DNA of 64,000 bases from Eledone cirrhosa (taxonomy: Eukaryota): assembly GCA_964016885.1 (NCBI GenBank), contig OZ024742.1, positions 42,656,001 through 42,720,000 on the forward strand. Reading direction: 5' to 3'. Both the position numbers and the translations under genes were made by a program. Under the pieces are notes generated by a model. It ran no database searches. It was not told the origin of the DNA and saw only the letters and a program-made list of their open reading frames with translations. Shown here piece by piece: positions 1,286 through 55,872 of this stretch (the first letter of the stretch is position 1; each line of letters starts with the position of its first letter).

Positions 1286-2796
1286 ATGTATGGGACACCG
1301 TTATGTATTATGTATGTGTATATGAATGTATGGGACAGTGTTTTGTATGTATGTATATGTGTATGTATGCATGTGTGTATGTATGCATGCATGTGTGTGT
1401 GTATGTATGTGTGTATGTATGCATGTGTGTGTGAATGTGTGTATGTTATTTCTTTCTCTTAATTTCGAGTATATTTTTTATATGTATGTATGTTTGTATG
1501 TATGTATGTGTGCATGTATGTATGTGTGTATGTATGTATGTGTGTATGTATGTATGCATGTATGTATGTGTGTATATATGTATGTGTGTATGTATGTGTG
1601 GGAGATTGTTATGTATGTATGTATGTATTTATGTATAGGACATTGTTATATATGTGTATCTATGTATGTATGTATACATGCATGCATATGTGTATGTATG
1701 TGTGTATATATGTATGTGTGTATGTATGTGTGGGAGATTGTTATGTATGTATGTATGTATTTATGTATAGGACAGTGTTATATATGTGTGTGTATGTATG
1801 TATGTATATATGGATGTATCTATGTATGTATACATGCATGCATATGTGTATGTATGTGTGCATGTATGTATGCATATATGTGTGCATATATATGTATGTA
1901 TATATGTATATCTGCATGTCTGTATGTATGTTTTGTATGTATGTATACATGCATATATGTGTGTATGTATGGGTGTATGTATGTATGTATGTTTATATGT
2001 ATGTATGCATGTATATATATATACATGCGTGCATGTGTGTGTGCATATGTATGTATATGTCTATGTATATATGCATGAGTGTATGTGTATGTATTTATGT
2101 ATATGTGTGTGTGTGTGTATATGTATATATATGTATGTATGTATATGTAAGTATGTATATATGTATATATGTATGTATATATATATCTGTATACATGTAT
2201 GTATATCTGTGTATATGTATATATGTATGTATATCTGTATGTATGTATATATGTATATATACAGACTGACTAGAAGGGGTGTCACTGTGGATTATACCCT
2301 AATTTAGGTCATGGTCCTTATATCTACTTTTTCACTTCACATATTCGAACACAATACAACAATATATACATAATACACTTATCATTATATACACCATTAT
2401 ATAATATACACACTCATTACACATGCTATTATGATATATATAGCACAAAGGGAGTCAGTTGGGTAATATTTGAAATCTCTAACACTTTGAAATATATACA
2501 CATACACACACATATTCACACACACAAAAACACACACACACATATACATGTATATATATATATATATATATATATATATATATATATATATATATATATA
2601 TATATATATATACGTGTGTGTATGTATATATATGTGTGTGTGTATATATATATATATATATATATATATATATGTAGAAGTTATATTTAAATTGTTGGGA
2701 TACAACAAGCAAATATTTTTATAACTGATATAAAGCACTCAACAAATTATTACGATATATTAACAAATGGAAACTATATTTATAAAACCATATTTA

Positions 2797-2857
2797 TTTC
2801 ATTATACATATTTCAAGGACACCAAGTCAAATTATGGTGCGCTTTCATCAGATAAAA
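2797..2857 (-). ncRNA. Type I hammerhead ribozyme motif (left-arm copy)
   Basis: Reverse complement of the motif at 3177-3237. Confidence 0.75.
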
Positions 2858-2990
2858 TATAGATCAGTTTTATAAATAAATATTGACATACCCTTAAAGA
2901 ATGCGACCATTTCTGTTGGAAAGGAGCTTTCAACAGAAATGGTCGCATTCTTTAAGGGTATGTCAATATTTATTTATAAAACTGATCTAT

Positions 2991-3175
2991 GTGGATTGGC
3001 AGTATCGGTAGAGGGTCGGACGCCATGCTTTCCAGCATAGTTACGTCCCTTTACGATCTGAGTTCAAATCCCGCCGAGGTTGACTTTGCCTTTCATCCTT
3101 ACGGGGTCGATAAAATAAAGTACCAGTAATGCACTGGGTAATTGCTGGCCTTGTGCCTAAAGTAGAAACAATTAT
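2991..3175 (+). mobile_element. tRNA-derived SINE, family 2 (Meta-domain-like core)
   Basis: B-box-like GAGTTCAAATCC and the core GCCTTTCATCCTTACGGGGTCGATAAAATAAAGTACC. Further copies near 30107 (-), 44290 (+) and 63349 (-). Confidence 0.85.
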
Positions 3176-3176
3176 A

Positions 3177-3237
3177 TTTTATCTGATGAAAGCGCACCAT
3201 AATTTGACTTGGTGTCCTTGAAATATGTATAATGAAA
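3177..3237 (+). ncRNA. Type I hammerhead ribozyme motif
   Basis: ttttat-CTGATGA-aag..cacca/tggtg..ctt-GAAA-tatgta-TA-atgaaa. Stem I ttttat/atgaaa (one G-U), stem II pairs, short stem III. Confidence 0.75.
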
Positions 3238-3624
3238 TAAATATGGTTTTATAAATATAGTTTTCATTTGTTAATATATCGTATTTTATATATATATATA
3301 TATATATATATATATACTAGCAGTTTAGCCCGGCGTTGCTCGGGTTTGTTCATTTGCTATGAAAAGTTACATACGAATAAGTTACATACGAATAAGCTTA
3401 TCAATTAAGTGCATAAAGCAGTTGAACCGGTTATTAAAAGTTACGAACCAATTAGCATTTTAGTCAATCAATGATGGGTTAATAATCTTCCAATAGCGAA
3501 TTTAGTAGACCAAAGTTGCAAGACGGTGGCCCTGATGCCACTGGGTGTCAGATCTGTCCGCCATGGGATACCCTACCAGGAAATAGTGTTCCAGACGGCA
3601 TAGCTGCAACACCTGCACCAACAT

Positions 3625-53360: not shown

Positions 53361-53418
53361 ACACTATGCACATTTCAGTGGCCAGGTCATGTAAGAACCT
53401 GGTGACTTCATCAGGTGT
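53361..53418 (-). ncRNA. Type I hammerhead ribozyme motif
   Basis: acac-CTGATGA-agtcaccaggt..acctggccact-GAAA-tgtgca-TA-gtgt. Confidence 0.75.
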
Positions 53419-54798
53419 AAATTATGTAATAGATATATACCAACGGAATGATGGTAAGCTTTAAGGAAACAAGCAAAGAAATTTTACCCAGAGACGGACG
53501 TAGTAGCATACTGCCACATTGTACATTGCGATATATTATACATATATATATAATGTGGCATATATATATATATATACATATATATATATAATTTTAAAAG
53601 CCATACATTGTGTGTCAAGATAACAATAGAATCTTACCTTTGCAAATTTAATTATTCCAAATATTTCAGGTTTAAAACCCCATTATGAAGGGAGTATCCT
53701 TCTGAAGGTCTGAAAGGATTGGTCAGAGATAAGTTGTTGTTAGGCTGATTTAATTTAAATCTACCTTCATAACAACAACTTATCTTATGGGGTGTGGCTC
53801 TCTTACATATGATCCCACATGCTACCAAGTACATTTTATTTTAACACCATCACTAGAGTGATTGTCATGTCTTTGACGTAACTGAAGGGTCCTCACAACC
53901 CTTTGTTTGGCAAGTTTTCTATGGTTGGATGCCCTTCCTGTTACCAACAACATTACAATGGAGGGGGAATTTATAGTGTGGAGGTGCACAGGGATGAAGG
54001 GAGTAGCTATTAAGGTATGGTAGTGGAGGTGGAGGATGTCGGGGACAGGTCACATTTTAGGCTGGTAGGTGGGTCTATTCCAGTACATGTCACTGATTCT
54101 CACATTCCTTTGTCATCTTGGCTGTATGTATATATAAATATATATATATACATATATATACATATATATGTGTGTGTGTGTATATATATAGACACACACA
54201 CACACATATATATATGTATATACACATATATATATATATATATATATATATATATATATATATATATATATATGTGTGTGTGTGTATATATATAGACACA
54301 CACACACACACATATATATGTATATACACATATATATATATATATATATATATATATATGTGTGTGTGTGTGTGTATATAAACAAGAAATACTTTTATTA
54401 ACGTTTGTATATTTTCTATCTCTTCTTGGCTAATTAATATCTTTTCAATTGCAGATCATGGGTTGGTGGCAAATTTTCTGTTATTTGTAAATAGTCATTA
54501 AGACTATCAGCTTGTCCTTTGTCATTTGTCCATTTGTTACTGTCACTTGTGTACTAGAACCAGTTATATCGATCTTAATGCACTGAAACAACATATCTCT
54601 TGTGGTCTACTGATGAGATGGGACTGCCTGTATTCATTCATTTTGCTGTCTTCATCCATATTTTTTATTCATTCGTACATTTGCAGCCATGCAGGACTCT
54701 GTTTTCAAATTGATGTTTTATGTATATATATATTTGAAAAGGTAGTAAGGTTCTATACAAAACATGGGTCATAGAGAAAAAGTGGAATTGGAAATAGA

Positions 54799-54989
54799 TA
54801 TTTAAGGATCTGTTTTTCATTTTTTCTTCTTTGATTCGTCAAAGTGACATTATTTAAAAAATGAGAGGAAGAATATTTTATATACATTATAAAACTCCTT
54901 TTTTTAAAAAAGAATTGTCCTCTCATTTTTTCAATAATGTCACTTTGACAAATCAAAGAAGAAAAAAAGAAAAACAGATCCTTAAATAT
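54799..54989. repeat. Imperfect inverted repeat, about 70-bp arms (MITE-like)
   Basis: TATTTAAGGATCTGTTTTTC...TGAGAGGA versus TCCTCTCA...GAAAAACAGATCCTTAAATA. Confidence 0.75.
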
Positions 54990-55114
54990 ATTTTCCGTGC
55001 TATTTTAAATTCCTCTCTCTCTCTCTCTCTCTCTCTCTCTCTCTCTCTCTCTCTCTCTCTCTCTCTCTATATATATATATATATATATATATATATATAT
55101 ATATATATATATAT

Positions 55115-55567
55115 GGAGGCACATGGAGGCACATGGCTTAGTGGTTAGAGCATTGGCCTTGCAATCGAAAGGTTGTGAGTTCAATTCTCAGACCGGGTGA
55201 TGTGTTGTTTCCTTGAGCAAGACACTTTATTTCACATTGCTCCAGTTTACTCAGCTGTAGAAATGAGATGATGGGGACTGGGGTCCCTATCATTCCACTG
55301 CAAAGTGGTCGTGGAGGTGCACCGGCAAAAAGCACCCAGCCCACACTGTAAAGTGGACGTGTAGGTGCCATGGAAAAAAAGCACCCAGCACTCACTGTAA
55401 ATGCGGTTGTTGTTAGGAAGGGCATCCAGCTGTAGAAATCAAGCCAGAATCAGTTCTCGTATGAACAAGACAAGGTCAGCCGACTGGACATTGCCCACAA
55501 CAGGACAACCCGTCTAACCCATACTAGCATGGAAGAACGGACATAAAACTGTGATGATGATGATGAT
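55115..55567 (+). mobile_element. Full-length SINE family 1 with tail B
   Basis: tRNA head with duplicated GGAGGCACAT, body, tail B and (GAT)n. Confidence 0.9.
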
Positions 55568-55836
55568 ATATATATATAGAGAGAGATAGAGAGAGAGAAA
55601 GAGATAGATAGATAGATAGATATGTAAAAATCCCGACTGTCTTGCCAAGAGGTATCAGCTTGTGTGTTCAGCAAAAGCTTTTTGTATACTCCCATCATTA
55701 GTGGTTTCCCCAGTCTCAGCACTGAGACTATATATGTATATATATGTATGTAGAAGGTAAACAGAAATTACAATACAATCAGTACAGTATATGAAAAAAA
55801 TATATTAGGTTAATGCTTGAAATAGCAGGAAGAGGG

Positions 55837-55872
55837 TCTTAACGTTTTGGATGCTAGTCCTTCATCAGAAGA
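55837..55872 (-). ncRNA. Hammerhead motif with mutated GAAA (AAAA), probably inactive
   Basis: tctt-CTGATGA-aggactagcatcc-AAAA-cg-TT-aaga. Confidence 0.5.

Follow-up and report, generated by a model that had tools for sequence, protein, structure and literature searches.

Why should a short stretch of octopod DNA carry eleven type I hammerhead ribozyme motifs close to (TA)n tracts, six of them in pairs that read outward? The stretch, hereafter the window, comprises 64,000 nucleotides of Eledone cirrhosa (contig OZ024742.1 of the 3.0-Gb assembly GCA_964016885.1, positions 42,656,001 to 42,720,000) and consists of AT-rich animal DNA rich in microsatellites. Most probably, these motifs are the 3′-end, or pseudo-long terminal repeat (pLTR), hammerheads of five Penelope-like element (PLE) families of the Hydra clade (A-E), one PLE family of the Neptune clade (G) and one non-coding family (F), truncated in (TA)n, and the outward pairs would result from a reverse transcriptase (RT) that is primed twice per insertion.

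Penelope-like families behind the hammerheads

Membership in the PLEs, which the earlier note on this DNA had put forward, holds: families A-E are tied to RT-endonuclease open reading frames (ORFs) of the Hydra clade, and G to Neptune. Family D is young and abundant. Its 241-codon frame in the window has at least 150 genomic matches with 93-100% amino-acid identity, several of which lie inside intact 830-codon frames. In 15 loci, selected for long frames or paired matches, the D ORF is followed by a 3′ region of 1.6 kb, in which a simple pattern finds the hammerhead core in 13 cases, and a truncated tandem or inverted copy often stands upstream of the ORF. The 830-codon protein P0001 is encoded by a single ORF with an RT and, at the C terminus, a GIY-YIG endonuclease, and shows the motifs RWR, DKT, CxCx5C (CNCRSSRTC), CxxC before E (CNLC..E) and CxH after N (N..CQH). 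The published diagnostics of the Hydra clade are RWK, DKT instead of DKG, CxCx5C, CxxC and CxH around E and N, and no CCHH (PMC8557442, section 11). Such motifs were read in P0001 for D and are seen in part for the other families; by eye, P0001 also resembles Hydra-1_Obim.

Families A, B, C, E, F and G were searched in their own genome, the 40 best candidates being scored and 25-30 loci fetched for each. The ORFs of A, B, C and E are 29-66% identical to P0001. For B, locus L221 holds a complete pLTR-ORF-pLTR unit; the C unit directly precedes a full Hydra ORF (L222), E lies directly downstream of a Hydra ORF (L223, L232), and A flanks Hydra ORF fragments on both sides (L225, L226, L218). The unit measures 4.3-4.7 kb in D and about 4.1 kb in B, and the 3′ regions of A-D 1.1-1.7 kb. 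In each of A-E the pLTR contains a canonical hammerhead close to the 3′ end, and the tandem or inverted 5′-truncated copy with a one-sided tail, as known from the Hydra clade, was found as well.

For G, walking upstream from the ends of the subfamily at 55837 led, after 400-500 nt, to an RT-endonuclease frame in L386, L387 and L388. This frame matches Neptune1_Ap by eye and reads, as in Neptune PLEs, RT, a CX4CxxC linker (CX2-5CxxC in the clade) and a CCHH GIY-YIG endonuclease, a structure traced for the 55837 subfamily only; the sister subfamily at 41776 is putatively tied to Neptune through its 80% likeness to the Neptune-linked end. Also Neptune-like are the minimal hammerhead with an ACGT palindrome at the 3′ end and the endings in (TA)n or (CA)n. 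Unlike other Neptune PLEs, the G copies seen here are old, their divergence being about 10% and their frames broken, and inverted arms are rare (1 of 30). In F, the tail directly precedes a stop-rich body of 1.7 kb in 13 of 25 loci; the unit of hammerhead, tail, body and hammerhead, about 2 kb long, has the anatomy of a PLE. A decayed Hydra frame upstream of L110 was considered as the F ORF and rejected, as it is not contiguous with the F body. Judging from these frames, only F appears to be a non-coding unit, A-E and G belonging to coding elements.

Full tandem D units with a 4.7-kb period were found at two loci, L360 and L365 (G000:C1:172.89-172.90 Mb and 187.80 Mb), the former with three hammerheads in a row; both are candidate source loci, where dimer cleavage might find its natural substrate. 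Beside Neptune copies lie two further Hydra ORF families (L386:7411-9601, L388:1-897), which share 38-62% identity with P0001. Also, a relaxed descriptor detected at least 10 further hammerhead families in bystander sequence of the fetched loci (L013-L415), many of them adjoining TA tracts. The genome thus holds far more PLE families than the seven of the window.

Two 3′ ends, paired arms and priming

The 3′ end takes two fixed forms in each family: one is short and has no tail, the other is long and has a tail with which the next tandem unit begins. In D, the short form ends 40 nt past the predicted cut; tail lengths are 173 nt (D), about 150 nt (F), 98 nt (B), about 77 nt (A) and about 64 nt (E). 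The D set comprises 61 insertions, namely the first 60 distinct ones on contig C1, taken by position, and the window copy. Thirty are two-armed, and all 30 combine one long with one short end; neither long+long nor short+short pairs occur. In 9 of these 30, the long arm does not extend beyond the tail and therefore shares no sequence with the other arm. The same rule is followed in 15 of 16 pairs of B (the exception runs on into an ORF), 4 of 4 of C, 5 of 5 of E and both real pairs of F, five further pattern pairs of F having been dropped as spurious motif matches; second arms of A end at or near the short site, as judged from BLAST ends. The flanks of L371 and L372 are identical, and these two may be one duplicated insertion.

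The two arms of one D insertion resemble each other more than they resemble other copies. Over 16 insertions and 4120 columns, overlapping arms of the same insertion shared 0.021 non-majority bases per column versus 0.005 with other copies, and differed at 0.007 versus 0.049 per column. Rare bases are thus shared fourfold more and differences are sevenfold fewer, which indicates that both arms came from one source, unless conversion homogenised them. Looking for a footprint of hammerhead cleavage, we found no D arm that begins at the first base past the predicted cut, the nearest beginning 3 nt upstream; an indel of 6 nt in the reference is the probable cause of four ends at -51. Upstream pLTR pieces at the D loci read through the hammerhead. 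Both observations argue that the integrated templates were uncut at this site.

The long+short rule, the tail-only arms and the (CT)n stutter presented below favour twin priming with RT slippage. The most likely sequence of events would be as follows. A read-through RNA with an uncut hammerhead would be bound by the protein of the element, whose endonuclease would nick a TA tract on both strands. Of the two nicks, one would prime at a distal start site, the end of the tail, and the other at a proximal start site 60-170 nt upstream of it, both being 3′ of the hammerhead. Both cDNAs would stop early and then be linked in head-to-head orientation through short microhomology or filler; overlapping arms would need strand displacement or a second RNA from the same locus. 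Where the RNA start sites match the nicked TA primer over a few UA-rich bases, this may aid targeting and let the RT slip, which would give (CT)n or (CA)n. The hammerheads, predicted to be weak as monomers, would need a dimer or a protein, and would probably process the tandem precursor RNA rather than the integrated template. More tentatively, it is quite possible that Hydra PLEs practise an obligate two-site twin priming, in which one protein dimer primes both target strands, each at a different fixed start site of one RNA, and that the slippage repeats made at initiation build microsatellites. If so, two-site twin priming would explain the long-unexplained head-to-head structure and the one-sided tail of all endonuclease-bearing PLEs, and the slippage of a telomerase-related RT would mean that these elements both target and build microsatellites.

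Alternatively, fold-back or self-priming could produce the inverted arm, with the other arm or an antisense RNA as its template; self-priming on an antisense template has been proposed for rotifer Penelope (PMC3846280). Palindromes at some centres (CATATG in B) and near-identical arms with rare variants in common would suit such a process. However, in the 9 of 30 two-armed D insertions mentioned above the inverted arm is made of tail sequence only, absent from the other arm, and self-priming on an antisense template cannot make it. Moreover, both arms end at fixed and different sites, either of them can be the longer one, and most D junctions are without palindrome. Self-priming is thus an unlikely origin of the inverted arms.

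Twin priming itself has to face several observations that weigh against it or against the identity given to the elements. Of the 61 D insertions, 31 depart from the two-armed form (22 short and 4 long solo ends, 3 ending elsewhere, 2 internal inversions). For A, B and E the queries contained the tail, so that only the second arm is an unbiased observation. The similarity of the arms could also come from gene conversion, and most two-armed insertions have overlapping arms, unlike simple L1-type twin priming without strand displacement or a second RNA. Ten of 25 solo D arms have no TA on the 5′ side. Hammerhead cleavage, expression and the RT steps are predictions from sequence, and the window hammerheads all score below the Rfam gathering threshold. 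Pfam recognises no family in the window fragment, in P0001 or in three Neptune fragments; the assignments to Hydra and Neptune are therefore putative and follow from motifs and from visual comparison with published alignments rather than from a tree. As for F, two upstream walks revealed no ORF, the longest stop-free frame having 103 codons and no tblastn match, in copies that are old.

The preference for (TA)n proposed in the earlier note was confirmed. TA-rich 3′ flanks were found in 26 of 29 A, 28 of 29 B, 20 of 25 C and 17 of 23 E loci (about 68-97%), and in 10 of 24 F and 18 of 35 G loci (42-51%), versus a background of 3.5-5.7%. The 5′ flank is TA-rich as well in 15 of 25 solo D arms, which argues that TA tracts are real targets. 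De novo synthesis of TA was considered: the solo arms are TA-rich on the 3′ side in 19 and on the 5′ side in 15 of 25 cases (Wilcoxon p 0.04), a difference too weak to claim it.

Between the end of the element and the TA tract, 25 of 53 D short ends carry 4-35 CT units, whereas runs of at least 4 CT units are found at none of 28 D read-through sites and in none of 25 far flanks. Likewise, TC runs occur at 4 of 29 B long ends, and CA runs at 2 of 29 A ends and 6 of 33 G ends. In D, B, A and G the run repeats the last two bases of the element itself. Slippage at initiation is known for some LINEs (long interspersed nuclear elements), and slippage at RT initiation would be the simplest reading of these runs. 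That they were instead pre-existing compound microsatellite targets, or later expansions, seems improbable: compound (CT)n(TA)n tracts do exist, in 3 of 64 TA tracts of the window per strand, but the run is always the terminal dinucleotide of the element (among the 53 D ends 25 CT and no CA, GT or AG; TC in 4 of 29 for B), and it is missing from the far flanks and the internal read-through sites just cited.

The short hairpins had been taken for mini-elements. This applies at most to F, which appears non-coding and is about 2 kb long; A-E and G are truncated 3′ ends of long coding elements. It is quite improbable that the hairpins are fixed non-autonomous units (similar to retrozymes or to miniature inverted-repeat transposable elements) copied as such. 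Many B hairpins do centre on one CATATG palindrome, A centres cluster near one site, and F indeed seems to be non-coding, with its tail directly before the stop-rich body. Nevertheless, the centres vary by fillers and offsets, the junctions between D arms showing overlaps of 0-6 nt or short fillers; identical ends also run on into longer arms and full ORFs, and those of A and B occur both on solo arms attached to TA and on long arms; D arms range from 16 nt to more than 4 kb; and none of the seven families forms short tandem arrays of a 170-400-nt unit in the fetched loci. Arm lengths and junctions that differ from copy to copy mean that the hairpins are not fixed mini-elements, and this reading is largely refuted for A-E and G.

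Hammerhead cores in the window

At all 11 sites reported, a type I core is present on the strand read, composed of stem I, CYGANGA, stem II, GAAA, a short stem III, UH and stem I′; the core at 55837, described as mutated, carries G12>A. A strict type I descriptor gave 8 matches in the window, versus a mean of 0.04 and a maximum of 1 in 200 local second-order Markov simulations. Seven of the 11 cores pass this descriptor; the four others, in which stem I, II or III is short, were identified by eye (Table 1). Genome-wide, the cores were recovered as seven families A-G, in agreement with the estimate of about seven, and they recur among the family loci (26 of 30 in A, 29 of 30 in B, 25 of 25 in C, 23 of 25 in E, 21 of 25 in F, 22 of 25 in G). 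The D motif (a 51-nt hammerhead) has 933 exact genomic copies and the G motif (35-mers) 302, versus 0 for reversed controls.

Stem I is distinct in all seven families and pairs in each, as claimed; this covariation was read from the stems by eye, a MAFFT alignment of the eight hammerheads having misaligned E and G. The palindromic stem III was right for TATATA (B), CAATTG (D), TGTGCA (F) and ACGT at 55837, whereas the middles of the others were corrected to TATGTA (A), CATTG (C), CATTTG (E) and, at 41776, ATGT instead of ACGT. At gathering score, the Rfam scan of the window returned one weak tRNA only and no hammerhead; an E-value scan of the whole window, dominated by microRNA models on TA repeats, had no hammerhead among the 150 of 292 matches listed. 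A weak match to HH9 covers 53129-53200 (12.7 bits, E 4.6). When folded as monomers, stems I and II appear for A, B, E and G1, and only B (z -3.1) and D (z -2.7) fold better than shuffled sequences, the other six giving -1.5 to +0.9. Each of the three window pairs forms an inverted repeat in which the two hammerheads face outward.

That the motifs are chance matches in low-complexity DNA, as might be supposed from the lack of an Rfam match at threshold, from six of eight monomers folding no better than shuffles and from an eighth descriptor match (33223-33291, minus strand) that is itself probably due to chance, is already refuted for the sequence pattern by the 8 matches versus 0.04 expected, by the exact D and G copies without counterpart in the reversed controls and by the fixed position of the hammerheads at PLE 3′ ends; catalytic activity is predicted only.

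Despite unrelated stems, A, B and F (3175-3239, 38359-38413, 53361-53418) agree in having a C-C mismatch at position four of stem II. In C, D and E, as in many published Hydra motifs, stem II has one additional unpaired base on each side.

Related systems and other features of the window

The earlier note thought the system probably unannotated. This does not stand, as the Hydra clade with its hammerheads, its insertion into (TA)n and an octopus family has already been published (PMC8557442). In that work, Craig et al. (2021) describe Hydra-1_Obim as the octopus family and Penelope-13_HM with a hammerhead on both strands and an inverted copy, and name the formation of tandem and inverted PLE copies and the choice of microsatellites as open. 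The Hydra PLEs presented there share with A-E a single RT and GIY-YIG ORF, the RWK-like, DKT, CxCx5C, CxxC and CxH motifs, a 3′-end hammerhead with near-palindromic stem III, (TA)n insertion, an inverted 5′-truncated copy and a one-sided tail. The hammerhead sequences of A-E differ from the one listed for Hydra-1_Obim. Hydra PLEs are generally below 3 kb, whereas A-D are longer (4.3-4.7 kb in D), a feature that is descriptive and not diagnostic, and the tails described are of 30-40 nt versus about 60-170 nt here (PMC8557442). For octopus, the main text of a repeat annotation (PMC13282606) mentions no ribozyme and no Hydra element. Our elements are new families of described clades, and their value lies in the copies, which display the arm rule and the stutter. 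Young and abundant, family D lets the structure of PLE insertions be counted; thanks to its unusually long tail (173 nt) the two start sites are easily told apart, so that the arm rule, the tail-only arms and the stutter are countable. Its intact young ORFs (830 codons) are also material for a direct in vitro test.

Minimal PLE hammerheads are of type I with a short stem I, a long stem II and a palindromic stem III; many families coexist per genome, mostly as solo motifs, with pairs on opposite strands 100-700 bp apart (PMC4209133; PMC6765202). The architecture is the same here, and a stem II mismatch like that of A, B and F was not encountered in what we consulted of this literature. Non-LTR retrozymes (PMC7229834; bioRxiv 10.64898/2026.07.22.740005) lack coding capacity, as F apparently does, and have type I hammerheads at their borders, which F shares and which a PLE derivative should show. 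[quoted passage not shown] With its 2 kb and its apparent lack of an ORF, family F adds a PLE derivative that is intermediate between retrozymes and full PLEs.

In vitro, the Poseidon element PAc cuts each of the two strands and extends it; its RT starts at two internal sites that delimit the tail, and the process does not depend on cleavage by the hammerhead (PMC11167929). The AT-rich target and the uncut RNA template are as in our proposal, and the two-site twin priming suggested here would extend this result. In contrast to the UA-rich matches that we propose, that study found no homology between start site and target; in what we consulted of its main text, the two starts are not tied to inverted arms and stutter repeats are not reported (PMC11167929). 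In a narrow, mostly open-access coverage of the literature, we found no paper that links twin priming to PLE inversions and none that links slippage to PLE ends; priority is not established by this.

Table 1. Hammerhead-bearing insertions and associated features of the window (positions in the window; +, match to the strict type I descriptor; -, core outside it)
Feature	Position	Strand	Hammerhead core	Descriptor	Remarks
Family A (Hydra), left arm	2674-2921	minus	2795-2859	+	Long end, tail ~77 nt
Family A, right arm	2923-3287	plus	3175-3239	+	Short (tail-less) end; SINE-interrupted
SINE-like repeat	2991-3172	plus			Later insertion in A right arm; four more window copies
Inverted pair A	2674-3287				Right arm interrupted by SINE
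Family B (Hydra), left arm	38011-38234	minus	38062-38116	+	Short end; 100% complementary to right arm
Family B, right arm	38241-38562	plus	38359-38413	+	Long end; 98-nt tail 38465-38562
Inverted pair B	38011-38464				224-nt arms, 100%
Family C (Hydra), solo 3′ end	38856-39047	minus	38901-38945	-	Short end
Family G sister subfamily, solo 3′ end	41700-41897	plus	41776-41811	-	Minimal hammerhead; 5′ boundary approximate
(CT)12 stutter	47579-47600	minus			Between D short end and (TA)n tract
Family D (Hydra), long left arm	47601-49934	minus	47640-47688	+	Short end; ORF fragment, 1.6-kb 3′ region
Hydra ORF, C-terminal 241 codons	49209-49934	minus			Linker CxCx5C and GIY-YIG endonuclease; 97% identical to P0001
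Family D, right arm	49950-50892	plus	50638-50686	+	776 nt, 99% complementary to left arm, then tail ~173 nt
Inverted pair D	47601-50725				776-nt arms, 99%
Family E (Hydra)	53097-53279	plus	53141-53183	-	14-nt inverted short-end piece 53097-53110 and main tailed arm
Family F, solo 3′ end	53306-53521	minus	53361-53418	+	Parent an ORF-less element of ~2 kb
Family G (Neptune), solo 3′ end	55748-55968	minus	55837-55872	-	Minimal hammerhead with G12>A; boundaries approximate

The short interspersed nuclear element (SINE)-like repeat in the right arm of A is putatively of tRNA type, on account of a B-box-like motif. E and F stand tail to tail around one (TA)13 tract (53097-53521), and the fetched loci often show different PLE ends stacked within a single TA tract in this way. 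Right past the TA tract that adjoins family A begin fragments which we take to be a Helitron-like Rep/helicase (3317-6519, minus strand; frames 3628-4149 and 4879-6519). A 1158-codon frame (6974-10447, minus strand), GC-rich compared with its surroundings, opens with what is presumably an L1/Tx1-type endonuclease domain. Frames and fragments at 23833-26763, 28266-29515 and 37145-37777, all on the minus strand, presumably belong to RTE-type LINEs. Finally, a 38-bp satellite occupies 13825-22420 (226 copies, 92% matches) and has a 232-nt repeat on either side (11822-12053, 22842-23073), the two copies being inverted relative to each other.

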